DNA of 64,000 nt, from the IMG/VR virus record IMGVR_UViG_3300028175_000001; one strand, 5' to 3'. Below are positions 12,538-33,731 of the stretch, in pieces. The position numbers and the translations under genes were made by a program. Numbering within the stretch: position 1 is the stretch's first letter; each line of letters begins with the position of its first letter. Origin of the DNA: a virus. Below the pieces are notes generated by a model, which was not told where the DNA came from, searched no databases, and saw nothing but the letters and a program-made list of their open reading frames with translations.

Positions 12538-12538
12538 G

Positions 12539-14055: not shown

Positions 14056-14408
14056 ACTCCTACTACATATTCATCTGTATCAGACAATGATATTCTTACA
14101 TCTTGTCTTGGGCCTTTGTATTCTTTCGATACTGAAGCATGTACAACAGGAAATCGAACCCCCCTGCTTGTCAAATGCATGTAACTAACATCTAATCTTA
14201 AATAAGGTGAAGCTATTGCTTTAGAATATGCTTCCTTAACACACCAACATTTAGTTAAATATCTAGCAGTCATAGGACTGGGCGCATTTCTTTTTTCAAT
14301 ATCTGTTAATATTTTATTAACAAATTTGTCTCCCCATTTATCATATATCTTTTGAATAGGTTCGATTGTTTGTAAATCAATACCTATTAAATTTTCTCTA
14401 GCAGACAT
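14034..14408 (-). CDS. acpS: Holo-ACP synthase (AcpS-type 4'-phosphopantetheinyl transferase)
   Basis: IGIDL, F..KILT..E, WCVKEAYSKA and ISLSD motifs; 124 aa. Confidence 0.85.
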   Translation of the reverse strand: MSARENLIGIDLQTIEPIQKIYDKWGDKFVNKILTDIEKRNAPSPMTARYLTKCWCVKEAYSKAIASPYLRLDVSYMHLTSRGVRFPVVHASVSKEYKGPRQDVRISLSDTDEYVVGVCYIWAH

Positions 14409-16017: not shown

Positions 16018-16261
16018 TTGCTTTTCGCTCTACCATATTATATAAATCGTTTATTGTTGTTGCTTTTTGAAACTCTTCTGCATCTAAGGCAATATTAAAA
16101 GTATCTTCAATAATTATCATTGTTTCTAAAATATGAATAGAATCAATTTCTAAATCTAAAGCAATTTTACTATCGGACTTTATCTCTGGAAAATCAATAC
16201 CCGCGGCCGCTTCTTCAAACGCGGATTTACATTTTTCTTCAATTTCTTGTCGTGTGTACAT
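16010..16261 (-). CDS. acpP: Acyl carrier protein
   Basis: 83 aa, acidic; DLEIDSIHILE (Ppant Ser), IEDTFNI and TINDL; GAGGA SD. Confidence 0.88.
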   Translation of the reverse strand: MYTRQEIEEKCKSAFEEAAAGIDFPEIKSDSKIALDLEIDSIHILETMIIIEDTFNIALDAEEFQKATTINDLYNMVERKANA

Positions 16262-17755: not shown

Positions 17756-17965
17756 TTAAATGCTTTCCATTCTACGTGTATATCTATCTTTTAGCTCATT
17801 AAAATTAGATGTCAAATTAGCAGAAATAAATATAGACTCTGTTGAGTCTAAAAAGTTCAATATTTTTTGATATCCGTTTTTTGTGAAATCTTCACTTTCT
17901 ATTTTATTTATTTTAAATAAAATAGTTTCAAACGATAGGTTTTTTAAGTTTACAATTTTACTCAT
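17756..17965 (-). CDS. Hypothetical small protein
   Basis: ATGA overlap upstream; abuts the downstream start. Confidence 0.5.
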   Translation of the reverse strand: MSKIVNLKNLSFETILFKINKIESEDFTKNGYQKILNFLDSTESIFISANLTSNFNELKDRYTRRMESI

Positions 17966-18876
17966 TTTAGTATACCATCTTCTCCAGGCATTACTACAGG
18001 TAGACTTGGATCAAGCGCATATTCATTTGGGAGATTTACAGTATCGTCACAATATGGAAGTTTTCCTTCAGTTGATAATATATTCCCGTATTCATCAGCT
18101 TTTTCATTTTTTTCTCCAGTAATTTCTTCTATAGGATCGTCAATGGGTCTATTGTTTTGGCCGGCAAGTCGAACATCAACTATGCCCTGACCAGGAGTGT
18201 CTGCACCCTGTACTGCTTGAGGATGTTTTGCGGGAGGATATGGCCCTCCCGCATGTAAATCCAAAGAACCAACTCCATCTTGACCATGCGCATTTCCTTG
18301 AGGTTTAAATATTTGCCCTCCAACACCTTCATTAACAAAAGCATCAACATCAATAATCGCATCATCAAGAGTTTTTTTACTAAGGTCATCACGAGCAGTG
18401 TCTAGATATTCCATATAGTCTTTAGTGTTGCCTATAGCCTTAATGAGATGTTCTTTACATTGATTATCACAATATTTATGAAAGTCAGAAGCAAACTGGC
18501 AATTACAAATCATTCCTTTTACATATTCTGCCTGTTCACCTGCTTCTGTTGTATAAGTAGGAGAGTCGTGTTCAACCATTCCTTCCAATTCTCTCAGAGT
18601 GTATTCAACAAGCTCATCAACCTTTTTGTCTTGATTTTCATCTACTTGAATATTTTGATGAGCAGTTGGCAATCCACCGGCCGGCTGACCTGTATCGGCC
18701 GTTAAAGTTTGACTATTCATATCCGTCAACATCTGTTGCTTTTGCAACGCACTTAATCCCAAATCTAATGACTTTAGTAATGTCATACCTATTGGCTGTG
18801 TTATTTCATCATCCAATAGTGGTGATAATGCGGCAATAGCGGCATTTGTGCATTCAATAACTTTATTTTCACTCAT
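17962..18876 (-). CDS. Hypothetical acidic protein with a central Cys cluster
   Basis: CNCQF...YCDNQC; coupled to the upstream radical SAM gene. Confidence 0.6.
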   Translation of the reverse strand: MSENKVIECTNAAIAALSPLLDDEITQPIGMTLLKSLDLGLSALQKQQMLTDMNSQTLTADTGQPAGGLPTAHQNIQVDENQDKKVDELVEYTLRELEGMVEHDSPTYTTEAGEQAEYVKGMICNCQFASDFHKYCDNQCKEHLIKAIGNTKDYMEYLDTARDDLSKKTLDDAIIDVDAFVNEGVGGQIFKPQGNAHGQDGVGSLDLHAGGPYPPAKHPQAVQGADTPGQGIVDVRLAGQNNRPIDDPIEEITGEKNEKADEYGNILSTEGKLPYCDDTVNLPNEYALDPSLPVVMPGEDGILK

Positions 18877-20221
18877 GATTTATCTCTCTGGGGAAATTTC
18901 TTTTTTGGGTTTCAAGCATTTCTTCTGCTATGTGATCTAAACCAGAACCCTGGCCAGAGGTATCTATTATTCCCAATCTATCAATAGCAGTTGTCGGATG
19001 ACCGGTTCTAGGCAATATTCTATTTTTTTCTTCTTTATCTCCTGCATCAGGAAGATGTTTCATTCCTTTTCCTACTCTCACTAATCCATTTTGTATTGAT
19101 GCCAATCCTTGTTCTGTATAATAAAATCTATGATCTTTACGTTCTCCACAAGAATTACACATATCACAAAACATGTGGCATACAGGAGAAAATAATTTAT
19201 TTTTTATCCATTGTTTCCGTAAATAATCTATCTGTTCTTTTAATAACCAATTAATTTTTGCTTTATCTTCGGGACTATCTTTACCCGCTAAACTTTCATC
19301 TATAGATGTAACAACTCTATCCGGTCCATATGTCTTGACTATACGCAAAATATCCTTAGCAAAACATTGTACATTTGATCTGTGAATAGTATACCTGGCC
19401 CTCCATTTAATTTGGTCTTGGGGTGGCATATTGGAATTATAATCTGAAATATTTTTAAATGCTTTTAATACATCTGGAGTAGAATCTTTACCAGAATAAT
19501 ATACCCTATCTAAATTTCCTGCACCATCAAAACTAATATCAAAAGAAACCCGTTGTTTAATTCCTGGATTAGATTCCAAAAAAGTAATAACACTATTAAA
19601 AAATTTTGGCTTACTTAAAAGTATACCATTAGTTGTTATATTGAAATGTAAATTGTGCTTCTGAGAATATGCATAATTCATAAGATATTCACAATTTTTC
19701 CATTCTAACATCGGTTCACCACCAAAAATACAAAATAAAGTTTGTTCATCTGGTCTATCGGTTTTATTAATATCATCTACAAGTTTTTTCAACAATGGTG
19801 GTTCGGGTAAATGTTTTGGTCGATTTTCTAAATGTTCATAGCAATAAGAACAATTTAAATTACATTGACTTGTCATATAAAATAAATGTATACCTCCACC
19901 GTGTGCAACTCTTGTATTTTCGTTTTCACCATGAGTAAAATGTCTATCCATAATTTCATTAACATTGGCTTCTGCTAAATCAAGTCTTCCTTCTTTTAGT
20001 GCTTTAACACGGTCATAATGTTCATCTTTTGATACGCTTTCTACATGTTGTTTTACTACTTGATTCAATTCACGATCAGTTAGAGTTAATAATTTTTTAA
20101 CATCATGTTTTTCATATTTACATACACCTTCTCCTGTTTTCAATCCTCGTTCATAATCAATAACACCATCAAGAGATCCCATGGTGGGTAAAACTTTTTT
20201 AGAGCGTGTTAGTGTTTTCAC
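18869..20221 (-). CDS. Radical SAM enzyme (third of three), with a short C-terminal Cys cluster
   Basis: CNLNCSYC, FGGEPML, TTNG and ISFDG; C-terminal CHMFCDMCNSC. Confidence 0.9.
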   Translation of the reverse strand: MKTLTRSKKVLPTMGSLDGVIDYERGLKTGEGVCKYEKHDVKKLLTLTDRELNQVVKQHVESVSKDEHYDRVKALKEGRLDLAEANVNEIMDRHFTHGENENTRVAHGGGIHLFYMTSQCNLNCSYCYEHLENRPKHLPEPPLLKKLVDDINKTDRPDEQTLFCIFGGEPMLEWKNCEYLMNYAYSQKHNLHFNITTNGILLSKPKFFNSVITFLESNPGIKQRVSFDISFDGAGNLDRVYYSGKDSTPDVLKAFKNISDYNSNMPPQDQIKWRARYTIHRSNVQCFAKDILRIVKTYGPDRVVTSIDESLAGKDSPEDKAKINWLLKEQIDYLRKQWIKNKLFSPVCHMFCDMCNSCGERKDHRFYYTEQGLASIQNGLVRVGKGMKHLPDAGDKEEKNRILPRTGHPTTAIDRLGIIDTSGQGSGLDHIAEEMLETQKRNFPREINHE

Positions 20222-20646
20222 TATTTTCCCCTTACAACTGGTCTTTCGTCCAGTTTTCTGCGGATTTGTTCTTCTGGATTTTGTTTTAGAATATATGCTA
20301 TGTTTTTCATAAGTCTAGGAAAATCAATGTTATAATTAAATAAATGTGACTTTATTCTTGTACCATCTGATTCAGGATTCCAAGAATCATAAAGTAAATT
20401 TTTATCTCTCGCTTGTTTTTTTGATGGGGTGTCTTCTAGCTGTACTTGATTAATAAGAGTTTGAATATCTCCGTCTTTTGCGGCCCTTGCCGATTTTTCA
20501 TATCGCTCTACTGATTTTTTATTTTTATTATTTATTACAGCCTCTTGTCCTGAAATCGCAGGATGCCATCCTTCTTCACGATCTAGATCATTTAGTTCTT
20601 CTGGAGTTCCGTGTATTTTATTTTTTTCCATGTAACAATTTTCCAA
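20221..20646 (-). CDS. Hypothetical protein
   Basis: ORF filling the gap between coupled genes; start uncertain. Confidence 0.5.
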   Translation of the reverse strand: MENCYMEKNKIHGTPEELNDLDREEGWHPAISGQEAVINNKNKKSVERYEKSARAAKDGDIQTLINQVQLEDTPSKKQARDKNLLYDSWNPESDGTRIKSHLFNYNIDFPRLMKNIAYILKQNPEEQIRRKLDERPVVRGK

Positions 20647-21439
20647 GATATTTTATCTGTTCAAATACTCTTTCTTGTTCAATAGCCATATATTTGTAAG
20701 CAAATTCAAATTGAGTATCAGAATTGCCCCCATCAAACGTTAGCATTAATCCATTTTTTTCAAACCACGCTTTTGTTGACCAATCTTCATGGTTAAATAA
20801 TTTAAAATAGTTCCACATAATTTTAATATTTTTTTCTATGGAAGACGAAAAAATATTTAAATTTTTCATTGAATCTACAGTAAAAACTATATACGCACAA
20901 CATTGCCAGTCTGTATCATATGCGGGATCGTTTTGATCGTAATGGCCCTCACACGATTCTATAACATCAACACCATCAAATATATTAATTCCACTAACCA
21001 ACGGTTCTATTCCACATTCAACAATATCTTTTTGATGATCTTTAATTTCTATGTGGCCTATCTGTAAAGCACCAAGTCTATTAAGATTTTCATAAACTTC
21101 TGTTGGTAACCCAGACATATGATCATACACTAATCCAAATTTAGATAAAAAGTTATTCAATATTAATCTAAAAGATTTTGATGATTTCTCTGTATTTTTA
21201 ATAATGATAAAATCACCTATCATATTACCACAATTTTCAATACCTGTCGTTTTTTCAATTACATGATTTAATACCGTTAAATCAATAAGATGATCAATAT
21301 CTTTTATGATAAACAAATTAGACCTAAATTGATATACTGTTACATCCTTACGATCTATTAAATATCCAGGCAAATATTTTGTGGGACCGCCAGTGTCCGC
21401 AGTTCTGGTGTCTACTACTGGTTCATCAAATATTCCCAT
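20618..21439 (-). CDS. Hypothetical protein with SCEGH motif (paralog of 9980..10780)
   Basis: VECGIEPLVSGINIFDGVDVIESCEGH...AYIVF. Confidence 0.65.
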   Translation of the reverse strand: MGIFDEPVVDTRTADTGGPTKYLPGYLIDRKDVTVYQFRSNLFIIKDIDHLIDLTVLNHVIEKTTGIENCGNMIGDFIIIKNTEKSSKSFRLILNNFLSKFGLVYDHMSGLPTEVYENLNRLGALQIGHIEIKDHQKDIVECGIEPLVSGINIFDGVDVIESCEGHYDQNDPAYDTDWQCCAYIVFTVDSMKNLNIFSSSIEKNIKIMWNYFKLFNHEDWSTKAWFEKNGLMLTFDGGNSDTQFEFAYKYMAIEQERVFEQIKYLGKLLHGKK

Positions 21440-21452
21440 AAAACCTTTCTTC

Positions 21453-22781
21453 TCAAGTACCTCTTTGAAGTTTCTTTATGTTATGATTATCTTTAGATTG
21501 TAAAAAAGCCAAGGTCGAATTATAATCCTTATAATCAAAAGATTTAATTTTTTCTTCAGTTTTAATTTTAAAATTTGTTAACCTTTTATATTTTTCATTC
21601 TTTTGCCACGCCTCATCTATCATCTCAAACATATCTACTTCTTCTTTATCTGCATTTGGCTCATAAAATCCTGTCCTACCCCCCCAAAGCGTCTTAATAT
21701 ATGTTTGAAAAGTTGGCATATCTTTACATATTTCTACCATTCTTATCGCTTCATCATAATATATATGAAACAATTCGCACACAGAATCGATTGGTTGATT
21801 ACCATTTCTTAATTGCGAATATGTACAACCTGCATTACACACTTTATATAATCTACATCCTTTACATTTATCAAATGCTAAAGGATTAAATACAGATTGA
21901 AAATAATCAAAATTATATTCATCGCCTTTCATTGGTAATAATTTCTTTGAGCCAAATCTTGCACATGGATAAAATGTTCCATCTACTGCCATAATAGAAC
22001 CATGATGACCAGCAAAACACCCGAATGCTCGTTTTTGTTTAGTTAATCCTAATAACATGTCTTGTAGGGGAAGATTAAACATTCCATTAGATATTAATTT
22101 TCCTTCATCATAATATTGTATGGTTCTATCTGCCAGTCTTCGACATTCCACTCTAAATTTATGAATATCGTCTAGGGACCAAATATCATCTCTTACAATA
22201 GAAAAATCAGGAGCAGGAATACCGAAATCTACTAAAAATTCAAAATTTTCTGTCATTGAATCAACATTGCCTGGAAATATCATAATTTTACATGTTTTAT
22301 TATGTTTTGTAACTTTCTTTATAAGATGTTGTCTATCACTGTACATCTCTAAAACATTATTGTATCCTTTATTCTCTCCAAAATTTTTAATAATAGGTCT
22401 TGATTCGTTTGCTGATATACCATCAAAACTCCAACTAACTCCAATCTGATTATCTAATATCCAATCAGCAGTTTCTTCGTTAATTAACGATAGATTAGAT
22501 ATCATAGTAAGACCAACCAATCTATCCTCATATTCAGGAACTTTAACTTTTTTACAAACATGATCCATCAATGGCACATTTAATAGTGGTTCGCCCCCAA
22601 AAAAAGATAAATGAAATTGTTGACCATGGGCTTTTGATCTTTGAATTAATTGTAAAAATTCTGGCCAAGCCTTATCAAAAATTTCAGGAGTCATAAATTT
22701 ATCAACATTAGCAACATAGCAATACGGGCACCCCAAATTGCATTTTTCTGTTACAGATATTTCTAATTGATAACTAGGCAT
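21453..22781 (-). CDS. Radical SAM/SPASM peptide maturase-like enzyme
   Basis: CNLGCPYC, FFGGEPLL and SFDG; SPASM CFAG...DGTFYPC...CKGCRLYKVCNAGC...C. Start placed at MPSYQ (track start 22838). Confidence 0.92.
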   Translation of the reverse strand: MPSYQLEISVTEKCNLGCPYCYVANVDKFMTPEIFDKAWPEFLQLIQRSKAHGQQFHLSFFGGEPLLNVPLMDHVCKKVKVPEYEDRLVGLTMISNLSLINEETADWILDNQIGVSWSFDGISANESRPIIKNFGENKGYNNVLEMYSDRQHLIKKVTKHNKTCKIMIFPGNVDSMTENFEFLVDFGIPAPDFSIVRDDIWSLDDIHKFRVECRRLADRTIQYYDEGKLISNGMFNLPLQDMLLGLTKQKRAFGCFAGHHGSIMAVDGTFYPCARFGSKKLLPMKGDEYNFDYFQSVFNPLAFDKCKGCRLYKVCNAGCTYSQLRNGNQPIDSVCELFHIYYDEAIRMVEICKDMPTFQTYIKTLWGGRTGFYEPNADKEEVDMFEMIDEAWQKNEKYKRLTNFKIKTEEKIKSFDYKDYNSTLAFLQSKDNHNIKKLQRGT

Positions 22782-24324
22782 ATTTGCTCTCTGTAGTTTC
22801 TGATCTCTTTGGTAAGCTTGATATATTAAAAACTGCACCTATATTCTTGGCCGTTTCTGAAGTGGGCTCTTTGGATAAACCAGATATAACAGGAGTTTGC
22901 TGTTCAATAGAATTGACTTCTAAATTATGACCCTGCGAATAATTTCCTGGTCTATTCATCATAATTATTGAATCCGGATTCTTTTTAATCCACAGGGTTC
23001 TCCATGCTTTAGATACAGGCTCCAGTGTTTTCCATACTTGACACAATTGATGATTTGCTGGATGATTTTGCCATTTTTTACCAGCATCCTGTTCTTCACC
23101 AAATTTTGCATCTGCGGCATCAAATGAACCCGCAGGACACTTTAAACAAAAATCCGCTGTACATGTATTACACGCTAATGTTCCATCTGTTCTAAATTCA
23201 TCCAAATAAGAACGATATAATGATGTTGTTTCATCCACAAATTTTTGCATTTGCATACCAGATTCCATTAAATCGCCTCTTACATGATCCTCTCTTTGTC
23301 TATACATACACCCATGACAAGGATATGTTTTACCGTCTAAATCAATTGAAAGATAATTAATACCAGCCGCACAATTTTGTTTTTCTTTTCTGAACCATCT
23401 AAAGTGATTTTCTAAATTAATATCATGATCTATACTATATTTCACAATTTTCATTAAATTCACTCTTAGATCCTTTAAGTGACCCATATATTCTTCTTCC
23501 TTAACTGCACCATCAATTCTATCTGGATCTGTACTGTGAGTGTCAGGAGTGGGTCCATATGATTCTCCATTATCATAATGCCATTTCCAAACATCAAAAA
23601 GATATTTAAAATTGCGAGATGATATGACTGCTTTAATACCTATAGAAAAACCATCAGATTTTAACTCTTTATAAGTTGCATAAACAGTTTTAGATAATTT
23701 TTCACTTTCTCCTGCTTTAGTTCTACGTTCCATCGTATTAACAGGTTCACCATCAAAAGATACTTGAATATGTAAACGTGATTGTTGCGGCATATCTAAT
23801 CTATTTCCCAACAGACCTTTTAATTCTATTAACTGTTTTTTATACTTTTTAAGATAAGTTCCATTAGTATAGAACATAAAACATACTTTTTGAGTATCAG
23901 CCAATCTTTTCATTATATCTTTGCAAAAAAGAAAATTAGCAAAAGGTTCTCCGCCCCACCAATTTATATTAATATCTCTATACCTATCCATATCCAATGA
24001 CCTAACTGTTTTTTCTATATCTTCAGGAGTCATCTCTGTTTTTTCTTGATATTGTGATGACAATCCGCACGATTCTCCTTCAGAACAATATGTACAAGCA
24101 AGATTACATTCACTCGTTACATTAACATCTAAATTAAAACTTTGCATTGGATTAAAATTATTTGACATTGCACCACCACCCTGTCCCTGGGGCATTGTTG
24201 ATCCCCCCATCTGTTTTAACATTTTTTCTTGTTCTTCCATCGTTTTTCGCATTTGCATCATTTGCTGTTGCATTTGTTCGGGTGACATTTGTTCTTTTAT
24301 AGGATCAAATCGGATATTATTCAT
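22774..24324 (-). CDS. Radical SAM/SPASM peptide maturase-like enzyme with a Gln/Met-rich N-terminal extension
   Basis: CNLACTYC, WGGEPF, YTNG and SFDG; SPASM CAAG...DGKTYPCHGC...CNTC...CLKCP...C. Confidence 0.92.
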   Translation of the reverse strand: MNNIRFDPIKEQMSPEQMQQQMMQMRKTMEEQEKMLKQMGGSTMPQGQGGGAMSNNFNPMQSFNLDVNVTSECNLACTYCSEGESCGLSSQYQEKTEMTPEDIEKTVRSLDMDRYRDININWWGGEPFANFLFCKDIMKRLADTQKVCFMFYTNGTYLKKYKKQLIELKGLLGNRLDMPQQSRLHIQVSFDGEPVNTMERRTKAGESEKLSKTVYATYKELKSDGFSIGIKAVISSRNFKYLFDVWKWHYDNGESYGPTPDTHSTDPDRIDGAVKEEEYMGHLKDLRVNLMKIVKYSIDHDINLENHFRWFRKEKQNCAAGINYLSIDLDGKTYPCHGCMYRQREDHVRGDLMESGMQMQKFVDETTSLYRSYLDEFRTDGTLACNTCTADFCLKCPAGSFDAADAKFGEEQDAGKKWQNHPANHQLCQVWKTLEPVSKAWRTLWIKKNPDSIIMMNRPGNYSQGHNLEVNSIEQQTPVISGLSKEPTSETAKNIGAVFNISSLPKRSETTESKYA

Positions 24325-24327
24325 TTT

Positions 24328-24939
24328 TTATTTCGAGTTATTACAGTTACATGGACAGTGATTACAATCACATGGACAAAAATTACAGTTACATGGACAA
24401 AAATTACAGTTACAAGGACAGAAATTACAATTACAGGGACAAAAATTACAATTACAGGGACAAAAATTACAATTACAGGGACAAAAATTACAGTTACATG
24501 GACAGTGATTACAATTACATGGACAAAAATTACAATCACATGGACAAAAATTACAATCACATGGACAAAAATTACAATTACATGGACAAAAATCACAATC
24601 ACATACGCACACAACTTTCCATTCATCGAGTTTTGTTACCAGATCGTCTATATGTGCGGCGGCTATTAAATCTCCGACACTTACAGCACCATAAGATAAT
24701 GTTGGTGCGGGACTTGGTGGAGTTTGGGTATATAACTTACTTACTATTTCTCCACGCAATTCATTCCAAATTTGTGCGGCGACAGGATCTGCCATGCTGG
24801 TCCAAGATGAAATCGCTATACTTCTTCTTGTAAACTCATCATTTAATGAAGTTCTGCAAGTAGTTATCTCTGACTGCTGAATTAGTGTACCAGCTTGTGC
24901 AGGTAAACCAGTTAAATTGGTAGGACATGGCGAACCCAT
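24328..24939 (-). CDS. Cys-rich repeat protein, putative radical SAM substrate (RiPP-like precursor)
   Basis: ~110-aa non-repetitive N-terminus followed by 12 C[ND]C[ND][FH]CP heptads plus CNCN; GGAG SD; directly upstream of the rSAM/SPASM genes. Confidence 0.8.
   Translation of the reverse strand: MGSPCPTNLTGLPAQAGTLIQQSEITTCRTSLNDEFTRRSIAISSWTSMADPVAAQIWNELRGEIVSKLYTQTPPSPAPTLSYGAVSVGDLIAAAHIDDLVTKLDEWKVVCVCDCDFCPCNCNFCPCDCNFCPCDCNFCPCNCNHCPCNCNFCPCNCNFCPCNCNFCPCNCNFCPCNCNFCPCNCNFCPCDCNHCPCNCNNSK
24340..24603 (-). repeat. 21-bp coding tandem repeat (12.5 units)
   Basis: Unit approximately TGTAATTGTAATTTTTGTCCA; variation is mostly synonymous or N/D and F/H. Confidence 0.95.
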
Positions 24940-25122
24940 TATATTTTACTCCAAAATTTATTCCGTATTAATTTATCATCATTTCCCAAATAAAGAAAAT
25001 TTGTGATTCTTGAACCAAGTTTCTTTAATAACATTTCTTCATCTATCTCACTATCAAAATCAAGATTACCCCAAAAAGGTGCATCAGTTATATTTGCATA
25101 TTCCAATATCGTATACTTTCAT
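24939..25122 (-). pseudogene. Small unlisted ORF (TTG start at 25106, or frameshifted ATG at 25122), similar to part of 6899..7486
   Basis: 25118..24939 reads KYTILEYANITDAPFWGNLDFDSEIDEEMLLKKLGSRITNFLYLGNDDKLIRNKFWSKI*; its TAA overlaps the precursor ATG (TAATG). Confidence 0.55.
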
Positions 25123-28100
25123 ATTTTCACTTCAACAAATCCAGCATCACTATCAGACAATGCTATTCCAATTAAATCGTGTTTATGTGATTTATATTCA
25201 TATTTAGTTATAGATTTTCCTGCACCATCATTATAAGCCATAATAAGGTCCCCTTTAACACATCTTCCCACAATCTTAACTAATATTCTTCCGGTCAAAC
25301 AAATAAAGATCATAAATTCATTTTTTCTCTGTTCCATACTATCATTCATCCTCAATCCAGGATTATCTGAAACAACACCAGCATAAGGCATTTCAGCTTG
25401 ATATAGAGTAACTTCTTTTTCTCCTCCAATTGATAAAACAGTTCCTGGATCATATACCAAATCAGACTCATATCTCTCGGCCAAGTCAGACCAACTCGCT
25501 GATGTTGCTCTTCCATTAAATGTAACCGCATACATATCGTTATATACCATTGTAGATGTACCGATATCGTGTGTATTATTTGCGACAGGAACAATGGCCT
25601 TAGTTGTCATTGTTCCATCAAAACCAGAAGTTCCATATACTTTTAAAGCTGATAATCCAGTCACTCCACTTGAAGAAAAAATAGCACCATTAAAATACAA
25701 TTCTGTTGGTGTAGTAATATCATTTACTCTATATCCAGAATACGCTCCAAGCGAAGATGATGATGCATAATATTGAACATATCCAGCGGCTCCTGCTGGA
25801 CTGGTCGGCGCTCCATCAGCTCCAGAACTTCCAGCAGAGCCAGATGTTCCAGCAGTACCAGCACTTCCTGCACTTCCAGCAGAACCAGATGATGCATATG
25901 TTAATCCAGAAGAACCAGCAGTCCCAGACGTTCCAGAAGAACCAGCAGAGCCAGAAGTTCCCGCAGATCCAGACGTTCCAGCAGAACCAGAAGAACCAGA
26001 AGAACCAGCAGTACCAGATGATCCAGAAGTTCCAGAACTTCCTTCTCCAAAAGTTAATGCCGCCCAACCAGATATTGCAGTAGCAAAAACTAATTTAGCG
26101 GTATTTGAACTAATATAACGAATTGATTCTGGATAAATTACATCATAGTTAGAATCTACAACTTCAATATTTAAAGGTCTAACTCCTAAATTATGATTTA
26201 TTAACCAAACAGAACTTGCTGAACCTTGAACATGAATCCAGGAACCACCATCTTGACCAGAAGAACCAGCACTTCCAGCACTTCCTGCGGAACCCGCACT
26301 TCCTGCAGTTCCAGCAGAACCAGAAGAACCAGAAGAACCAGCAGTACCAGATGATCCAGAAGTTCCAGCAGAGCCAGATGATCCTGCACTTCCAGCACTT
26401 CCTGCACTTCCAGAAGAACCAGCAGAACCAGAAGAGCCAGCGGAACCAGATGTTCCAGCAGAGCCAGAAGTTCCAGCAGAGCCAGCACTACCAGCACTTC
26501 CTGCAGAACCAGCAGAACCAGCACTTCCAGCAGAGCCAGATGATCCAGATGATCCAGAAGTTCCAGCACTTCCAGAAGTCCCTGCGCTTCCAGCACTTCC
26601 AGCACTTCCAGCAGAGCCAGCACTTCCTGCAGTTCCAGCACTTCCAGAAGAACCCGCAGAACCAGCAGAACCAGAAGATGCATATGTTAATCCAGAAGAA
26701 CCAGAGGAACCAGTAGAACCAGCAGAGCCAGCAGAGCCAGATGATCCTGCACTTCCTGCACTTCCAGAAGAACCAGCACTTCCAGCACTTCCAGCAGAAC
26801 CTGCACTTCCAGCACTTCCAGCAGAGCCAGCACTTCCTGCACTTCCTGCAGAGCCAGATGATCCAGCACTTCCAGCACTTCCTGCGGAACCCGCACTTCC
26901 TGCAGTTCCAGCAGAACCAGAAGAACCAGCAGAACCAGATGTTCCAGCAGAGCCAGAAGTTCCAGCAGAGCCAGATGATCCTGCACTTCCAGCACTTCCT
27001 GCACTTCCAGAAGAACCAGCAGAACCAGAAGAACCAGCAGAACCAGATGTTCCAGCAGAGCCAGAAGTTCCAGCAGAGCCAGCACTACCAGCACTTCCTG
27101 CAGAACCAGCAGAACCAGCACTTCCAGCAGAGCCAGATGATCCAGATGATCCAGAAGTTCCAGCACTACCAGCACTTCCTGCAGAACCAGCAGAACCAGC
27201 ACTTCCAGCAGAGCCAGATGATCCAGATGATCCAGAAGTTCCAGCGGTACCAGAATCACCAGTTCTTGCGAATGAAGCAACAATTTCAGTATTGTTTTGA
27301 AAATTATTTAATGAAGAATCTAAAAATGTAACATCCACATAATACCATGAGGGATTTGTGGTATCAAATTCATTAATGCTGTATAAGAAATACTTTTCAG
27401 GAGCTGATTTATCATAAATTCGAAAATGGCCTTTTGGAACACTAAAAGCAACATCATCAATTGTCTGTAAGAAAGAATCAATTGTCGTGCCATCTTGATC
27501 AGTATCACTTATTCTCAATCTATTAGCAGTAGTGGGATATGTAAAAGCACCAGTAGTTAATGTAAATGCCAATTTACCCGTACCTGGATCATTCGTTGAT
27601 TGATCTGTACTGTAACGATATGCAAATGAAGCACCCCCAAAACCACCATCATGTCCAGATGAACCAGAAGTACCAACAGTCCCAGAACTTCCAGAACTTC
27701 CAGCAGAACCAGATGTTCCAGATGATCCAGAAGTTCCAACACTTCCAGAAGAACCCGCAGAACCAGCAGAACCAGAAGATGCATATGTCAATCCAGAAGA
27801 ACCAGCAGAACCAGATGTTCCAGCAGAACCAGATGTTCCAGATGATCCAGAAGTTCCAGCACTTCCTGCAGAACCAGCAGAACCAGCAGAACCAGCACTT
27901 CCAGCAGAGCCAGCACTTCCTGCAGTTCCAGCACTTCCAGAAGAACCAGCAGAACCAGAAGAACCAGAAGATGCATATGTCAATCCAGAAGAACCAGCAG
28001 AACCAGAAGTACCAATTGGACCATCAGCTCCAGATGATCCAGAAGTTCCAGCACTTCCAGCAGAACCCGCAGAACCCGCAGTTCCAGAAATTCCAGAAGA

Positions 28101-29015
28101 ACCAGCACTTCCAGCAGAGCCAGCACTTCCTGCAGAACCAGTACTTCCAGAAGAACCTGCAGTTCCAGAAGTTCCCGCAGTTCCAGAAATTCCAGAAGAA
28201 CCAGATGTTCCAGATGATCCTGCACTTCCAGCACTTCCTGCACTTCCAGAAGAACCAGCAGAACCAGAAGTACCAATTGGACCATCAGCTCCAGATGATC
28301 CAGAAGTTCCAGCAGAGCCAGAAGAAGCATATGTCAATCCAGAAGAACCAGCAGAACCAGAAGTTCCAATTGGACCATCAGCACCAGAAGTTCCAGATGT
28401 TCCAGCAGAGCCAGCACTTCCCGCAGAACCCGCAGTTCCAGAAATTCCAGAAGAACCAGCACTTCCAGCAGAACCAGAAGATGCATATGTCAAGCCAGAA
28501 CTTCCGGAACTACCCGCACTTCCGGAAGAAGTATCCCCTCCTCCGCCTCCACCAGATTCTCCCCAACCACTTCCACCGGCCACTCGTTGGGCAGTTAAAG
28601 TGGCTTTTTTACTAATCTTTTTAACAACTTCTTTAAAATTATCTAACTCTTTTACGAGTTTAGTTACATCAGCATCATCACCAGATTCTCCCTTTTCTCC
28701 CATTGGTCCTATAGGTCCAATATCTCCTAAATCTCCCCTAGGACCCTGAACACCTTGTGGACCAATTCTTCCTGATATTCCTTTAACGCCCACTTCGCCA
28801 GCAAGCCCCTTTTCGCCCTTTTCTCCCTTTTCTCCCTTAGGACCTACAGTGCCTTTAATTTCAAGAACTTTAACTGTTTCACCAGTAACAGGATCTAAAA
28901 TTTCTTTTATATCCTCTACAAGTTCTTCTTTAGTTTTTTTTAATTGTTTTTTAGTATAAGCAAGAGAAGTTGCTAGAACCTTACTTAAATCTAAATCTTT
29001 TTGATCGTCTTTCAT
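25119..29015 (-). CDS. Gly-X-Y repeat fibre protein: collagen-like N-terminus, long G-S/T-A/S tracts, C-terminal intramolecular chaperone-like domain
   Basis: GPKGEKGEKG collagen segment; hundreds of GSA/GSS/GTS triplets interrupted by two globular inserts; C-terminal DLAERY..D..Y.PGTV..GGEKEVT...GVVS...GR..VK...KGD typical of fibre chaperone/autocleavage domains. Confidence 0.75.
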   Translation of the reverse strand: MKDDQKDLDLSKVLATSLAYTKKQLKKTKEELVEDIKEILDPVTGETVKVLEIKGTVGPKGEKGEKGEKGLAGEVGVKGISGRIGPQGVQGPRGDLGDIGPIGPMGEKGESGDDADVTKLVKELDNFKEVVKKISKKATLTAQRVAGGSGWGESGGGGGGDTSSGSAGSSGSSGLTYASSGSAGSAGSSGISGTAGSAGSAGSAGTSGTSGADGPIGTSGSAGSSGLTYASSGSAGTSGSSGADGPIGTSGSAGSSGSAGSAGSAGSSGTSGSSGISGTAGTSGTAGSSGSTGSAGSAGSAGSAGSSGISGTAGSAGSAGSAGTSGSSGADGPIGTSGSAGSSGLTYASSGSSGSAGSSGSAGTAGSAGSAGSAGSAGSAGSAGSAGTSGSSGTSGSAGTSGSAGSSGLTYASSGSAGSAGSSGSVGTSGSSGTSGSAGSSGSSGTVGTSGSSGHDGGFGGASFAYRYSTDQSTNDPGTGKLAFTLTTGAFTYPTTANRLRISDTDQDGTTIDSFLQTIDDVAFSVPKGHFRIYDKSAPEKYFLYSINEFDTTNPSWYYVDVTFLDSSLNNFQNNTEIVASFARTGDSGTAGTSGSSGSSGSAGSAGSAGSAGSAGSAGTSGSSGSSGSAGSAGSAGSAGSAGSAGSAGTSGSAGTSGSAGSSGSAGSSGSAGSAGSAGSSGSAGTSGSAGTSGSAGSSGSAGTAGSAGSAGSAGSAGSSGSAGSAGSAGSAGSAGSAGSAGSAGSAGSSGSAGSAGSSGSAGSAGSTGSSGSSGLTYASSGSAGSAGSSGSAGTAGSAGSAGSAGSAGSAGTSGSAGTSGSSGSSGSAGSAGSAGSAGSAGSAGSAGTSGSAGTSGSAGSSGSAGSSGSAGSAGSAGSSGSAGTSGSSGTAGSSGSSGSAGTAGSAGSAGSAGSAGSSGQDGGSWIHVQGSASSVWLINHNLGVRPLNIEVVDSNYDVIYPESIRYISSNTAKLVFATAISGWAALTFGEGSSGTSGSSGTAGSSGSSGSAGTSGSAGTSGSAGSSGTSGTAGSSGLTYASSGSAGSAGSAGTAGTSGSAGSSGADGAPTSPAGAAGYVQYYASSSSLGAYSGYRVNDITTPTELYFNGAIFSSSGVTGLSALKVYGTSGFDGTMTTKAIVPVANNTHDIGTSTMVYNDMYAVTFNGRATSASWSDLAERYESDLVYDPGTVLSIGGEKEVTLYQAEMPYAGVVSDNPGLRMNDSMEQRKNEFMIFICLTGRILVKIVGRCVKGDLIMAYNDGAGKSITKYEYKSHKHDLIGIALSDSDAGFVEVKI
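25790..28560 (-). repeat. 9-bp-period coding repeat tracts with larger internal duplications
   Basis: Plus-strand units such as CCAGCAGAA, CCAGCACTT and CCAGAAGAA; 26266..26570 recurs about 597 nt later. Confidence 0.9.
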
Positions 29016-29041: not shown

Positions 29042-30724
29042 TCAATCTACAAAATTTTCATCATCTTCTAAAACAGAAAAAAGAATATCATTTACTTTAT
29101 CTTTAATATCATTTTCTTTTTTCGCAAATTCAAATTTTTCTTCAATCTTTTTATCAATATTTTCATTAATTTCTTGTTTATTGTGTGTATCTATTTTTAC
29201 AGAATTGAACTGCATATTATCTTCTCCCGAAAATCTAGGATCATCAGTTTCTTTTTGAATTTGCTCATCATTAGTTTTAATTTCATCATCGGTCATCATT
29301 AAAACATGTTTTCTAATATATTCATGAGACCAATATTTTCCAGCATATTCTTGTAAATCTCTTAAAATATTCAATCTATCTTGCATAAGTTCATTCTGTT
29401 TTATTTCTACAAAATGACTATCATTTTCAAATTCATAATATATTTCATTTTTAATATTCTTCCAATCTTCTTTAGACATTATTCCCCTGAGGATCAACTG
29501 TCTTTCCATCATTTCATCAAACAGTAAACTAAATCTACTTTGAAGTTTATTAACAAATCGTGTAAATTTAACTTCATCTCTTGAAATTTCAGTAGCACGA
29601 CCAATCGTATAGTTTGCTTCTGATTCAAGTCTAGAAATAGGAACACCTAGTGATTTATAAAGTTTTTTCTGAAAATATAATACATCTTCAATATCTCCAA
29701 GATTATTACCACCGGGCAAAGTTGTAATTTCTGTTCCTCTCCCACCCTCTCTTCTTGGCATCCAATAATCTTCAAGCATTGACATATGTTTTCTATCATC
29801 TCTAACCTCACCCGTTTGAGCATCATATACAAGTTTGTTTTTGTATCGTGTCATTAAATCACGCATGTATTGTTCTGCTTTTAACTTGGGTAAATTTCCA
29901 ACATCAACATAAAAAATTCTTCTCTCTGGGGCTCGTGAAATACGATAAATTACGAGAGAATCCTCGATCATTCTTAATTGATTTAATGGTTTGATTGCTT
30001 TGTGTAGGTAGGACAAAACTAATGTACGTGTACTATTCATTAGTCCTGAATGTGTATATATAATCGCATCAGGAGCTATTTTTAAACCACTGGCGGCACT
30101 TGTAAAAGCAGTACCCATTGTCTGCCCCTGTGATTGATATATTCCTTTTTGATTATAAACATAATATTCCTCGACAGTAGTTTTTGAGGTACCATCAGAT
30201 TGTCTATCGGTTTTCTTTTCACGAATTTTCTTTATTTTTCTAGGGTCTAATACTCTTAATTCGTGAATTCCTTTTTCTAGATTATTTTCATCAACAACAA
30301 CATGATAATAAATTCGACCATCAATATACCATCTTTTAAAAACATCGTGTCCTAAATTTTGTAAATCTAGAAGTTTGCTTATTTGCTTAAATTCTACTCT
30401 TATTTTGTCTCTGATACTTTCAGAGATATTTAAGTTGTCTACATTAATTCTTACAAGGGGCTTGTCTTTGGAGGCTACAATGGCTTCATTAATTATATCA
30501 TCAATGGCATTTTCTACTTCTGCTTGAAGACCCATATCACGATATCTGTTTATTAACTCAGATTCGCTTTTTATGGCTCCTGCCTGATCGACATATGTTC
30601 CATAAGCACCACCAGATGCTACGGTTAATGATCCATCTTCATATTCTGGTTCAGCGAAGGTTTGGGCTTTTACGGTTTTCTTTTCGGTTTTTCCGAGCGA
30701 AAAACCGAACAATTCAATGGGCAT
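29042..30724 (-). CDS. gp20: Portal vertex protein gp20
   Basis: WYIDGRIYYH, LHKAIKPLNQLRMIEDSLVIYRISRAPERRIFYVDVGNLPK and EDYWMPRREGGRGTEITTLPGG. Confidence 0.98.
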   Translation of the reverse strand: MPIELFGFSLGKTEKKTVKAQTFAEPEYEDGSLTVASGGAYGTYVDQAGAIKSESELINRYRDMGLQAEVENAIDDIINEAIVASKDKPLVRINVDNLNISESIRDKIRVEFKQISKLLDLQNLGHDVFKRWYIDGRIYYHVVVDENNLEKGIHELRVLDPRKIKKIREKKTDRQSDGTSKTTVEEYYVYNQKGIYQSQGQTMGTAFTSAASGLKIAPDAIIYTHSGLMNSTRTLVLSYLHKAIKPLNQLRMIEDSLVIYRISRAPERRIFYVDVGNLPKLKAEQYMRDLMTRYKNKLVYDAQTGEVRDDRKHMSMLEDYWMPRREGGRGTEITTLPGGNNLGDIEDVLYFQKKLYKSLGVPISRLESEANYTIGRATEISRDEVKFTRFVNKLQSRFSLLFDEMMERQLILRGIMSKEDWKNIKNEIYYEFENDSHFVEIKQNELMQDRLNILRDLQEYAGKYWSHEYIRKHVLMMTDDEIKTNDEQIQKETDDPRFSGEDNMQFNSVKIDTHNKQEINENIDKKIEEKFEFAKKENDIKDKVNDILFSVLEDDENFVD

Positions 30725-30737
30725 GATATTTCCTGAA

Positions 30738-30790
30738 TGCGAGTGAGTAAAAATAATACAATACTATTAATTTATATTTATTCACTCGCA
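30738..30790. promoter_or_regulatory. Inverted repeat in the gp19-gp20 intergenic region, overlapping a late-promoter-like AATAAATA
   Basis: TGCGAGTGAGTAAA (30738-30751) versus TTTATTCACTCGCA (30777-30790), 13 of 14 positions complementary. Confidence 0.55.
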
Positions 30791-30810
30791 AAATCAGAAA
30801 ATTGAGATTT

Positions 30811-31398
30811 TTATGCAGAGGCACCAATAGAAATAGTATCCGCTGTTCCTTTACCGCCTGTTTGACTGCTCTTTGTTCGACTCCAGTAATCATAAGAGAA
30901 AGTTACGGTATATTCTTCAATAGTATCGTTATCTCCCCAATCAAGAGTGATTTCTGAAAGATCAGTTGGAAACATACCATGAAAGCTATATGATGCAGTT
31001 ACTTTTGAACTACCAGATTTACTAAATTGTTGAACGTTCCCCACTAATGCATAAGCACTAGATGAATCACCCGTTTGTCTTGTATTCGTAACATGATCGT
31101 TTATACCGTTCATCCACTTTTCAAATTGCGATCTTATAGCAAAATTTTCATCATTAATAACTGTTATTGTCCATTCTGGAAAAGTTCTATTTCCTGCTAA
31201 TTTAACTTCTCTACCAAAATAAGGAACCACAACAGTTCCTATTGTGGTACCGGGTATTGAGGTCCCTTTAGCAAACAGGTTTATATCAGTTCCATTAAAA
31301 AAACTAGCGGAACCATGTGGAATCTTAACCTCAAATAAATTAGGTCTTTGACCATCATAGACCAGGGCCTGTCTAAAAGTTGTTATATCGAATGCCAT
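30811..31398 (-). CDS. gp19: Tail tube protein gp19
   Basis: RPNLFEV, PYFGREVKLAGNRTFPEWTITVINDENF and IEEYTVTFSYDYW. Confidence 0.96.
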   Translation of the reverse strand: MAFDITTFRQALVYDGQRPNLFEVKIPHGSASFFNGTDINLFAKGTSIPGTTIGTVVVPYFGREVKLAGNRTFPEWTITVINDENFAIRSQFEKWMNGINDHVTNTRQTGDSSSAYALVGNVQQFSKSGSSKVTASYSFHGMFPTDLSEITLDWGDNDTIEEYTVTFSYDYWSRTKSSQTGGKGTADTISIGASA

Positions 31399-31409
31399 CT
31401 ATTTTCTCC

Positions 31410-33731
31410 TTAAATTGCGTTGACTACTTCAGAAAATTCAACTCCTGAAGCCACTGCGACAAAGTTTAATCCAATGAAATTAATTGATTTAGTCGGCTTG
31501 ATAAAAATATCTCCCCTAAACTCATTTCTATTTATCACCACAGGTGTATTATTTGTGCTGTCACATATTACTTTAAAATCCTCTATTCCCCTTTGTGACT
31601 GAATATCCCTTAAAAAAGGTTCTATCATAGAAACAAAATTTAATCGTGTAAAATCATCATTAAATTCAAACAATAAATTTTCAGCGGCATTTGCTATAGC
31701 TTTTTCTAAAATAATAAACAATCTTCGTACATTAATTCTATCAAAAGAAGATGGCCTCGCTAACATTGTTTTATCACCAAATAAAATTTTACCTTTTCCA
31801 GGAAATGATGCTATTGGATTAATACCATTTATATACAGATCGTCTCTTTCCCCTCTATTGGGAACAAATGCTAAAAATTCTGCTCCTTTTATATTTCCTC
31901 TGGCAAACCCCGCAGGCGAAACATAAGGATTAACATTATCCGCTTGGGCGCAAATTCCAGCAACATCAGCATTGAATGGAATCCATCTATAAACAGAGTT
32001 ATACCTGTCAAATATGTATTTGTAATTTCCATCCATAACAGCATAACTTGTGCTTGGTAAAGTATTTCTTCTAGCAACTATATTTGTTATTTCAGAACCT
32101 TCTTTATTTACAACATCTGACTCTTCCGGAGAAATAAACACAACACAATCTTTTCTGGTTTCTGCTATTTCATTAATTAAATAGGTAGCTAAAGTATTTG
32201 ATGCTTCCCCCGAAATCAATAAAGAAATATTTATTTTCGCAGGATCTTTGAAATAACTATAAGCAGTAATTTCATCTGAAGATGAAGAACTATGTCCATC
32301 AACACCGCCCGACATACTAGCAGTCATAATTCCGTTTGCACCAGAATCACTAAATGCTCCGGGAAAACTAGCTGAATCATTTCCTGTGACAATAGTAGCA
32401 CCCCAATCATAAGTAATTTTATTAGATCCGGCATCAAGAGGAGCATCTCCTGTACTATCGTGATCTGTCCATCTTATATAATTAGAAGAATTGTTTATTG
32501 CATCTTTATAATAGAGAGTTTGACCGGTAGTTCCTGTGGCACCATTTGCTACAGATACACCTTCATATTTTTCAATGACTTGTTTTTCTGGATTATTTCC
32601 GCGAACATCTTTTGATCCTAAAATTTCACCACCTTCATCTACTATTGCAACATGTATTTCATCTCCAACAGATGCCGATCCAGTAATATTATAAGCATAC
32701 ACACTTGTAAGAGGCGCAGATCCAAAATCAGACGCAAATTCCCATTCCCTTTTCCAGGTACCACCATATAAAGCGGCTGTTGTTACCGCCCTATCTAATT
32801 TAGTTGCAACGCCCATTGACGTTGAATTTGTAATAGACGATATTCTTCTTTTATTCTCTACTCCATCATCATCTTTAAAGGTAATAATGTCTCCTAAATG
32901 CAATTGCCGAGTAAAATTAGTATCTGTTCCTGTAATAGTAGTTGATCCTGCAGAGACAGAAAGATTACCAAGCATATTTACTGCTGGCTCTTCGAAGGCA
33001 GATCTTTTTTTTCTTACAAGACTTGCACCTGACATAGCGACATCATCCCCCATACCCGTAGTCTCTAGTCCACCAGTGGCCTGTGAAATTGTTATTGCGG
33101 TGTTAGACGTGATTGCCGTTACTATTCCGCTATTAGAACCATGAACAACTACATCACCAATTCTCAATTCTGTATCTGCTAATGTACCAACACCAGTAAG
33201 ACCTGTTGTAGCATTAGAATTGGACCATGTACCCGTAAGATTCCAGTCGGTGCTACTTGCATGAGAAACAGTGCCATCAGAAGCATTAACTTGTGTACTT
33301 GTTCTATCCGCAACACACATAGAAACTTTTATTGAATTACCAAGTGTTCCTGGATATTTTGACGTAAAACTTGTTCCTGAAGTTGTCGTGTCCTTATATG
33401 TATTTTGATATTCTTTATCATTGCGAATTAAAATTGCAGAACCACCTGATACTGCATTTTTAGCAGTCGATGTATTAGCCGCTCTAACAACTCTTAACTT
33501 ATTCGAATAACTCAAAAAACTTGTAGCACTAAAAAACGTTTTATACGTATTAGCATTCGGTTTTCCAAACACACCAACCATTTCATCTTCAGAAGTAATT
33601 AATGTAGCAACCTCCAAGGGCCCCCATGTTAAGTTACCTGCTATTGCACCATCTGAAATAGAAGGAATAGGAACTCTAGTAGTTAAATCGATCTCTGCTA
33701 CGGCTACGCCTGGGCTAACTTGAAATGCCAT
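31410..33731 (-). CDS. gp18: Tail sheath protein gp18
   Basis: MAFQVSPGV, FGKP, SPAGFARG, GDKT, FDRINVRRLF and FEFNDDFTR. Confidence 0.97.
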   Translation of the reverse strand: MAFQVSPGVAVAEIDLTTRVPIPSISDGAIAGNLTWGPLEVATLITSEDEMVGVFGKPNANTYKTFFSATSFLSYSNKLRVVRAANTSTAKNAVSGGSAILIRNDKEYQNTYKDTTTSGTSFTSKYPGTLGNSIKVSMCVADRTSTQVNASDGTVSHASSTDWNLTGTWSNSNATTGLTGVGTLADTELRIGDVVVHGSNSGIVTAITSNTAITISQATGGLETTGMGDDVAMSGASLVRKKRSAFEEPAVNMLGNLSVSAGSTTITGTDTNFTRQLHLGDIITFKDDDGVENKRRISSITNSTSMGVATKLDRAVTTAALYGGTWKREWEFASDFGSAPLTSVYAYNITGSASVGDEIHVAIVDEGGEILGSKDVRGNNPEKQVIEKYEGVSVANGATGTTGQTLYYKDAINNSSNYIRWTDHDSTGDAPLDAGSNKITYDWGATIVTGNDSASFPGAFSDSGANGIMTASMSGGVDGHSSSSSDEITAYSYFKDPAKINISLLISGEASNTLATYLINEIAETRKDCVVFISPEESDVVNKEGSEITNIVARRNTLPSTSYAVMDGNYKYIFDRYNSVYRWIPFNADVAGICAQADNVNPYVSPAGFARGNIKGAEFLAFVPNRGERDDLYINGINPIASFPGKGKILFGDKTMLARPSSFDRINVRRLFIILEKAIANAAENLLFEFNDDFTRLNFVSMIEPFLRDIQSQRGIEDFKVICDSTNNTPVVINRNEFRGDIFIKPTKSINFIGLNFVAVASGVEFSEVVNAI

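Follow-up and report, generated by a model that had tools for sequence, protein, structure and literature searches.

A putative radical SAM-stapled cysteine-repeat protein encoded beside the tail-fibre gene of a marine T4-like phage

Could a bacteriophage carry a protein that is stapled by its own radical S-adenosylmethionine (SAM) enzymes? This question is raised by a DNA stretch of 64,000 nucleotides (nt), hereafter the window, from the virus record IMGVR_UViG_3300028175_000001, which is linear, 107.8 kb long and 60% complete by CheckV, and belongs to a marine T4-like phage. Along the minus strand, T4-like sheath, tube and portal genes are followed by the gene of a 1298-amino-acid (aa) collagen/Ser-Gly fibre, a 55-aa open reading frame (ORF), the gene of a Cys-repeat protein and then the radical SAM genes, termed rSAM-A, rSAM-B and rSAM-C here (Table 1). 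In outline, the enzymes may staple the Cys-repeat protein, predicted to be fibre-associated, through Cys-to-Asn/Asp thioethers and so stiffen it, a proposal drawn from sequence that we regard as evenly balanced between right and wrong.

The 3-nt gap between the repeat ORF and rSAM-A and the two genes between rSAM-B and rSAM-C, both described in an initial annotation of the window, are recovered from the ORF positions. The genes of rSAM-A and rSAM-B also overlap as described, but the extent is most likely 8 nt, not 65 nt, because rSAM-B most likely begins at the ATG at 22781 (MPSYQ); this start is inferred from relatives, one of which starts with MPEYH.

The cysteine-repeat protein and its family

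The Cys-rich heptad ORF that drew attention to the locus is indeed exceptional, since 39 of its 41 Cys fall within the last 94 of 203 residues, and 12 exact C[ND]C[ND][FH]CP heptads occupy residues 113-196. When the Cys tail was shuffled 10,000 times, 9,915 shuffles contained no exact heptad, 85 contained one and none contained more. The heptad C-[N/D]-C-[N/D]-[F/H]-C-P is thus a real pattern, but its natural register is C-x-C-N/D-C-N/D-aromatic, which gives 13 units, because the optional linker in relatives comes after the aromatic residue. The argument of the initial annotation that selection acts on the N/D and F/H positions is thin inside a single gene, because N and D differ by one base and both His codons are CAC, but it holds across 80 units from seven loci. 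There, Cys is kept at all three positions using both codons, and all four Pro codons are used. Synonymous codons vary while Cys is fixed, and therefore the constraint acts on the protein.

A family search with a profile of the N-terminal 126 residues gave 218 clusters at E ≤ 0.001, which represent a phage family combining a three-repeat helical domain with CxCNCNY units. Unit statistics were taken from the best 150 of the 218 clusters, 140 of which carry the Cys repeat, with 760 units. Position 2 of the unit is mostly Thr, positions 4 and 6 are N/D in 90% and 95% of the units, respectively, and position 7 is Y/H/F in 94%; N/D/Q/E stand at both putative acceptor positions (4 and 6) in 694 of the 760. 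Linkers are absent from 370 unit junctions and consist of one Ala, Ser or Gly in 180. Four is the commonest number of units (63/140 clusters), and the number spans 4-17 in alleles close to the window protein (21 full-length cluster members, some of which are possibly assembly artefacts). The taxa of the nearest ESM Atlas clusters are mostly tailed phages, and a tblastn search of cultured phages with the window precursor and two relatives gave no match. In two loci, L032 (13798-16362) and L044 (9501-11558), three or four paralogous precursors stand in tandem behind a single enzyme trio; their four-unit cores are identical, and their N-terminal parts differ (L numbers denote loci; L071 and L072 come from a GTDB scan).

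The N-terminal domain consists of three copies of a G-x-x-I...N-E-L-R motif, which is visible in the family profile. With 89 sequences, AlphaFold2 (AF2) predicts most of residues 21-100 at a pLDDT score (local distance difference test, as predicted) above 90 (overall 70.5, compared with 58 when 14 sequences were used), and helices are predicted at 22-38, 55-69 and 94-109. A profile search of PDB sequences with this domain gave nothing significant, and the gp38 attachment-domain fold is absent among the fold matches listed for it. The VIA fold matches, best to a designed filament (Z 7.8-8.0) and then to BARA domains, were read only as a common three-repeat arrangement, and no known fold exceeded Z 8. 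As a lead only, ESM Atlas features tie the domain to viral clusters with PF27846 in 19-52% of members (scores 0.81-0.86).

The radical SAM enzymes and their linkage to the repeat gene

All three enzymes exceed the cut-off of the radical SAM model PF04055 (45, 42.3 and 39.7 bits for A, B and C, against 29.5), with the CxxxCxxC motif Cys conserved. In rSAM-A, C73/77/80 and C318/336/385/388/393/396/428 are conserved in 35-36 of 36 homologues, and the three radical SAM and seven SPASM Cys of rSAM-B in 33-34 of 34. For rSAM-C, C120/124/127 are found in 24 of 24 homologues and C348/352/355/358 in 21-23; the C-terminal CxxxCxxCxxC (348-358) alone is present, and the SPASM Cys set is not. A and B, the overlapping pair labelled radical SAM/SPASM by the initial annotation, thus have seven conserved SPASM-type Cys, and rSAM-C does not. 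The SPASM model PF13186 gives 16.7 bits for rSAM-A against a cut-off of 21.5 and no match for rSAM-B, and the seven auxiliary-cluster Cys of both align with CteB. In L016 (7065-7574), a 169-aa ORF between rSAM-B and rSAM-A keeps only the terminal CxxxCxxCxxC of rSAM-C (E 5e-8).

The top NCBIfam model for A, B and C is PapB NF047865, at 75, 135 and 63 bits, all below its cut-off of 340. For A and B, models of thioether or putative Cys-peptide maturases rank after PapB, and sulfatase and cyclophane models lower. Scores below the cut-offs were obtained with TIGR04115 (rSAM-B, 70 bits against 350), TIGR04119 (25 against 150), the CrpC model TIGR04463 (rSAM-B, 38.6 against 525), the XyeB/YhhB cyclophane models (31-49 against 445-450) and the anaerobic sulfatase maturase model TIGR03942 (32-47 against 349). 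The CXXX-repeat target model TIGR04114 does not match the Cys-repeat protein. The best PDB structure for all three enzymes is CteB 5WGG/5WHY, with 5WGG E-values of 3e-13 for rSAM-B (from CteB residue 101) and 7.4e-9 for rSAM-C; 5WHY is also the CteB entry cited in PMC13692751. The PapB model and CteB thus score best, not the sulfatase or cofactor maturases; clustering with the latter was an outcome that the initial annotation had named as contrary to its reading. By sequence, A, B and C would act like ranthionine maturases, without membership of a named family.

The alignments of A and B to CteB begin no earlier than its residue 101-103, and most of their homologues have 11-39 residues before the cluster motif. 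Since the alignments start past the first 100 residues of CteB and fewer than 40 residues precede the cluster motif, both enzymes are without a RiPP recognition element (RRE; RiPP, ribosomally synthesized, post-translationally modified peptide). The accessory proteins X and Y, encoded on either side of rSAM-C, do not match PqqD-type models.

The linkage between the repeat gene and the enzymes was followed in both directions. In the reverse test, which is limited to rSAM-A, viral contigs were scanned with the rSAM-A alignment and the loci were collapsed at 95% identity. The repeat gene occurs in 33 of the 38 loci and in 20 of the 22 groups, with rSAM-B in 21 groups and rSAM-C in 19; that is, homologous enzymes are not routinely found without the repeat ORF, another contrary outcome that had been foreseen. 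Among the loci without it, L028 and L045 are contig ends, and L057 (13775-14200) differs from the near-identical L047 by a 284-nt deletion, natural or an assembly artefact, which removes the entire Cys repeat and shifts the frame. In the forward test, a DNA pattern for CNCNYCxCNCN, which is blind to the enzymes, was used, and A, B and C were counted at ≥100 bits within 10 kb. The pattern gave 75 loci, all in frame, 67 of which have A, B or C within that distance. When these were grouped, at least one enzyme was present in 31 of 36 groups, at least two in 28 and all three in 24. Even among the 19 groups contributing no sequence to the hidden Markov models (HMMs), 14 have at least one enzyme, and four of the five enzyme-negative groups end at the repeat gene or ≤1.6 kb from it on one side. 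Over 29 sequences, the three enzymes also covary in pairwise identity (Spearman 0.87-0.89, without correction for shared ancestry).

A GTDB scan with rSAM-A gave 15 loci, 13 of which were discarded as distant SPASM genes (19-31% identity, no CNCN-aromatic ORF). The two true homologues both lie on phage-like contigs, L071 with the whole cassette and L072, a 2.9-kb piece; therefore, a cellular version was not found in GTDB. L071 (161 kb, filed in a Chloroflexota metagenome-assembled genome) has fibre genes and the full cassette, and resembles a phage of this group that was placed in the wrong bin.

The two-way linkage, which spans many distantly related phages, and the best scores of PapB and CteB support the earlier suggestion that the repeat protein is a radical SAM substrate, and we consider it very probable that the Cys-repeat protein is matured by the neighbouring enzymes of peptide-maturase type. 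The further idea of one enzyme per Cys position is not supported. rSAM-C is without SPASM, three-Cys units persist in L102, L140 and L146 with only A and B nearby, and rSAM-C is reduced in L016 to the 169-aa ORF with the terminal Cys motif.

A cultured carrier also exists. Campylobacter phage CP220 encodes a 534-aa family member, gp140, which was found by the DNA pattern. Its rSAM-A orthologue gp136 (E 5e-30) is encoded 2.2 kb from gp140, while rSAM-B (gp023, E 1e-66) is located elsewhere in the genome, and a C-like gene has an E-value of 2.6e-19. All 15 Campylobacter phage records with rSAM-B, which represent one lineage, also have gp140. In their description of CP220, Timms et al. (2010) reported a 21-bp repeat in CPT_0180 and, separately, 11 radical SAM genes (PMC2853527); the equation of gp140 with CPT_0180 rests on the annotated repeat and the gene order.

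Virion role, proposed mechanism and rival explanations

In 72 of the 140 relatives, SDxx[LVFI]K occurs within six residues of the last Cys, preceded by Tyr in 63. Of these 72, 16 go on as a long tail and 56 end 12-16 residues later, and nine of the 11 long-tailed relatives scanned pass the cut-off of Peptidase_S74, a domain that folds tailspike triple beta-helices and cleaves itself via a Ser-Lys dyad (PMC8326128). A downstream gene for the remainder of the domain was detected by HMM near five of 19 stub-bearing precursors. Such a split arrangement, in which the precursor ends in a 12-residue SDxRLK stub with the presumed Ser and Lys and the domain remainder is a separate downstream gene, is seen in L049 (15179-15478), L137, L145, L146 (10192-10500), L017 (11789-12112) and L032 (16362-16628). 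Two long relatives have Hint-like tails by Pfam, below the cut-off. Two relatives carry Gly_rich_2 domains, one matching phrog_863 'tail fiber assembly'; in the L058 precursor, one of these carriers, the insert sits inside the N-domain. The C-terminal domain of the upstream fibre (25119-25520) is present in one copy in the contig, and in 22 of 38 groups, represented by part of their members, it lies ≤8 kb from the repeat gene. In L110, where the enzymes are missing, the repeat gene still has fibre genes around it. Of the 122 flanking proteins, 79 were scanned against PHROG, with a result that agrees with the fibre setting and also shows sugar and replication genes.

The Cys-repeat protein is therefore predicted, as a probable reading of these sequence features, to be a tail-fibre-associated part of the virion. 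The term RiPP-like used by the initial annotation suits the chemistry, but the product has the appearance of a protein that is retained, because the enzymes have no RRE, a folded N-domain replaces a leader, relatives carry S74, Hint and glycine-rich fusions, and the gene stands in a fibre-gene context.

How could the units be linked? In the unit C1-x-C3-N4-C5-N6-aromatic, two Cys-x-x-Asx pairs can be drawn, C1/N4 and C3/N6, and no constant i+3 partner exists for C5. The linker that follows the aromatic residue is variable, so that a conserved link should stay within one unit. A C-x-x-Q/D motif was also the cue for thioethers in CrpA, the protein-sized Cys-repeat substrate of the SPASM enzyme CrpC (PMC13692751). 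Based on the Cys-x-x-Asx pairs within units and on this cue, A and B would each install one i+3 S-C(beta) ranthionine per unit (C1-N4, C3-N6), with a loss of 2 Da each. C5 may be left free, may bind metal or may be linked to the aromatic residue by rSAM-C; this enzyme might have C5 or the aromatic as its target, or might be a partner subunit, like HxsC with HxsD (PMC13128918). If the repeat protein is the substrate, thioether chemistry is reasonably likely, while the exact register of the links is held with less assurance than the outline itself. Instead of a cleaved leader, the folded three-repeat N-domain would provide recognition by the enzymes and docking to the fibre, and might, by analogy with monomeric gp38 (PMC12032242), attach to the end of a trimeric fibre; the S74 fusions would equally fit a homotrimer. 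The stapled tail could then form a stiff, protease-resistant rod of adjustable length, akin to gp38 capping the long fibre of T2-type phages. In its fullest form, the proposal is that tailed phages of a widespread class use a dedicated three-enzyme line on one of their own virion proteins, which adds up to three different covalent links per seven-residue unit (two Cys-Asx thioethers plus a Cys-aromatic or other link) and yields a length-tunable rod on a modular fibre-tip adhesin, trimmed by fused or split S74, with RiPP-type chemistry as a step of virion morphogenesis; this we think rather unlikely to hold in every part.

Several observations weigh against the stapled fibre protein. The Cys repeat is predicted with low confidence by AF2 (pLDDT about 50 even at 89 sequences), no known fibre part matches the N-domain in structure (unrelated helical folds come closest, at Z 7.8), and Foldseek searches of PDB and BFVD returned no match at E ≤ 0.001. 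Neither the S74 motif nor an insert is present in the window's own protein, and because of this, its virion argument depends on family and position. Homology does not assign the reaction type, because PapB scores of 63-135 bits stand against a cut-off of 340. Modified motifs in CrpA are not confined to Asx acceptors (PMC13692751), and CPT_0180 is absent among the 11 excised virion bands of CP220, taken from a gel of major bands only (PMC2853527). As for linkage, L059 and L060 have rSAM-A alone, and L110 (within a positive group) and L125, both real local misses, have the repeat gene without A, B or C nearby; L059 and L060 are fragments 4% and 15% complete, and these incomplete exception loci, L110 and L125 included, are 4-23% complete where estimated.

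Could the same substrate, probably with the same virion role, undergo a different reaction? The enzymes might form aromatic C-C cyclophanes or make other radical changes at the N-aromatic positions, with the Cys serving as a metal ladder; fibre tips with ladders of metal-ligating residues, such as T4 gp37, are known. The aromatic residue in 94% of the 760 units, the weak matches to the YhhB and XyeB maturase models, the lack of SPASM in rSAM-C and the 48 bits of an rSAM-C homologue on the HxsC model (cut-off 268) all suit this explanation, as does the +8 Da added by HxsB/HxsC to a His-x-Ser repeat protein (PMC13128918). However, the PapB, QhpD and SCIFF thioether models beat the cyclophane models for A and B, and two almost fixed Asx residues stand exactly three after Cys, and we consider such chemistry unlikely. 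Somewhat less likely still is a modified protein that works in the infected cell or envelope as the phage's equivalent of the HXS effector, with counter-defence or superinfection exclusion as examples of its task. HXS is itself a radical SAM-matured repeat protein acting at phage DNA entry (PMC13128918), the CP220 homologue is not among the 11 virion bands (PMC2853527), 16 of 38 groups have no fibre C-terminal domain in range, and many cassettes also border sugar-modification and metabolic genes (UDP-glucose dehydrogenase, epimerase, other radical SAM genes). Against this role stand the S74 fusions and stubs in 72 of 140 relatives, the glycine-rich inserts, and the repeat gene that remains among fibre genes even when unlinked from the enzymes.

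A leader-like N-terminal part and a Cys-rich core beside SPASM enzymes, together with the cleavage domains S74 and Hint in relatives, would also be expected of a classical RiPP, in which the N-domain is a cleaved leader and the stapled core, once set free, acts as a toxin or signal. This we find improbable: the N-part is modelled as a confidently folded domain that accepts inserted domains, the cleavage domains lie on the C-terminal side of the core, where they would shorten the end instead of freeing the core, A and B are without an RRE, none of the 23 window proteins scanned matched a family of proteases or transporters, and the core varies between 4 and 17 units among close alleles. Or the enzymes may act on other targets, such as sugars, bases or the lipids of the neighbouring polyketide synthase (PKS) cluster, while the repeat gene merely travels along. 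T4-like phages have many radical SAM genes of unknown substrate, 11 of them in CP220 (PMC2853527), whose rSAM-B and rSAM-C are far from the repeat gene. Nevertheless, the linkage holds in both directions across enzymes 19-47% identical (low end, median), the CP220 rSAM-A orthologue is still 2.2 kb from the repeat gene, and all 15 records of the single Campylobacter phage lineage with B have the repeat gene, which makes an unrelated substrate the least probable of the explanations considered here.

Neighbouring genes and comparison with known systems

The features of the window are listed in Table 1.

Table 1. Predicted genes and domains in and around the cassette
Feature	Coordinates	Strand	Basis or remark
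Cys-repeat protein, 203 aa, putative substrate	24328..24939	-	phrog_26958 E 1.4e-22
N-terminal domain, about residues 16-110, three G-x-x-I...N-E-L-R-type repeats, one helix each	24610..24894	-	AF2, family profile
13 units C-x-C-[N/D]-C-[N/D]-[F/H/N], residues 111-201, 39 Cys	24337..24609	-	
rSAM-A, radical SAM/SPASM enzyme without RRE	22774..24324	-	PF04055, NF047865, 5WGG/5WHY
rSAM-B, radical SAM/SPASM enzyme without RRE	21453..22781	-	ORF caller start 22838; NF047865, TIGR04115, 5WGG
273-aa protein, close relatives only	20618..21439	-	No family above cut-off
Accessory protein X, small and conserved, 141 aa here and 59-126 aa in relatives; directly before rSAM-C in most cases	20221..20646	-	19-sequence alignment
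rSAM-C, radical SAM enzyme, single C-terminal CxxxCxxCxxC, no SPASM	18869..20221	-	PF04055, 5WGG
Accessory protein Y, 304 aa	17962..18876	-	Positional counterpart of the ~125-aa protein adjoining rSAM-C elsewhere
55-aa ORF, probably short form of a 155-180-aa gene of relatives	24939..25106	-	
Collagen/Ser-Gly-rich tail-fibre protein	25119..29015	-	PF01391, tail-fibre PHROGs; phrog_22593/19602 at C-terminus
T4-like portal, tail tube and tail sheath genes	29042..33731	-	PF07230, PF06841, PF04984

Proteins X and Y, which flank rSAM-C in most loci displayed, are unrelated when compared with each other. X is present in 17 of 38 locus groups and has no family match; Y is helical, and its N-terminal part is 7-15% identical to the distant proteins of about 125 aa, too low to show homology. 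The 273-aa protein is matched in L004/L062 and L172-L176 and absent from distant loci. It shares the motif I-E-P-L-V...S-C-E-G-H with ORFs in L071, a motif that we take to be reminiscent of TYW3-like folds. Protein Z (phrog_25260; e.g. L029, 14462-14863) follows the precursor in 28 of 38 groups and also occurs in CP220, and is absent from the window's own virus contig. In L029-L048 and L050, radical SAM genes of other types and a glycosyltransferase-like gene are located 3-7 kb downstream of the cassette, with UDP-glucose dehydrogenase upstream. Positions 10777-16261 of the window (minus strand) contain a lipid/polyketide cluster composed of acyl carrier protein, short-chain dehydrogenase/reductase, type III PKS, AcpS, 2-oxoglutarate-Fe(II) oxygenase and desaturases; two fatty-acid desaturases are confirmed by Pfam, and a third ORF, at 10777-11565, looks similar. 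A similar cluster follows the cassette in L004/L005, and the precursor of that relative is 57% identical. Metatranscriptome contigs (four runs, three studies) span the cassette and its neighbours alike; contigs cannot show transcription, and they were not used as evidence.

If the proposal is true, radical SAM thioether chemistry would extend from cellular peptides and proteins to virus particles, as a new kind of covalent maturation in phage assembly. A substrate would be assigned for three of the 11 CP220 radical SAM genes, and the 21-bp coding repeat of CPT_0180 would be explained. RRE-free enzymes working along a tandem repeat would also be useful stapling tools. Since the cultured phage CP220 carries the set, the claim is open to mass spectrometry on particles. 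Protein-scale ranthionines (QhpD, CrpC) and the maturation of repeat proteins by several radical SAM enzymes (HXS) are already known. A literature search, with subscription journals mostly outside its scope, found no description of an RRE-free enzyme trio that a phage encodes for a probable protein of its particle; the portions consulted of PMC12801897 and PMC10783043 concern other radical SAM genes.

Among known systems, PapB (NF047865), CteB/SCIFF (TIGR03974; 5WGG, 5WHY) and QhpD (TIGR03906) are similar to A and B in the radical SAM plus seven-Cys SPASM layout, and in a Cys-rich substrate with Asx acceptors close by. The PapB motif is Cx3D/E. The phage set differs from the three in its scores far below the cut-offs, the lack of an RRE, the number of enzymes (three) and its coding by a phage, and its substrate in having a folded domain with 4-17 tandem units, where the Cys-to-Asx spacing would be i+3. 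In the CXXX-repeat system (TIGR04114 target; TIGR04115 and TIGR04119 maturases), a Cys-repeat ORF likewise adjoins paired radical SAM-type genes. Its Cys recur every fourth residue, however, compared with the 2-2-3/4 pattern of the phage protein, whose set stays outside TIGR04114, TIGR04115 and TIGR04119; demonstrated chemistry for this system was not found in the literature searched.

CrpC of Methanococcus voltae (TIGR04463) also staples a protein-sized substrate with a C-terminal Cys repeat, CrpA, and the product stays a protein, but CrpC has an RRE and acts alone, on a 17-residue repeat in an archaeal cell (PMC13692751, in whose main text the word 'phage' does not occur). In HXS (HxsA-D), more than one radical SAM enzyme and a small partner mature a repeat protein, and X may partner rSAM-C likewise; HXS differs as a bacterial defence effector with His-x-Ser repeats, +8 Da, periplasmic export and no Cys units (PMC13128918). 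On the side of the fibre, the gp38 adhesin of T2/S16-type phages differs in that no sequence or fold match between it and the N-domain was found, and the part of PMC12032242 consulted describes no Cys repeat or maturase, so that it serves as an analogy only. The likeness lies in the modular build of a small protein, in which a glycine-rich module can be swapped and the attachment domain is conserved, encoded near a fibre gene (PMC12032242). S74-chaperoned fibres, with their C-terminal S74 autocleavage (PMC8326128), would have a parallel in those relatives of the window protein that carry the domain or its motif.

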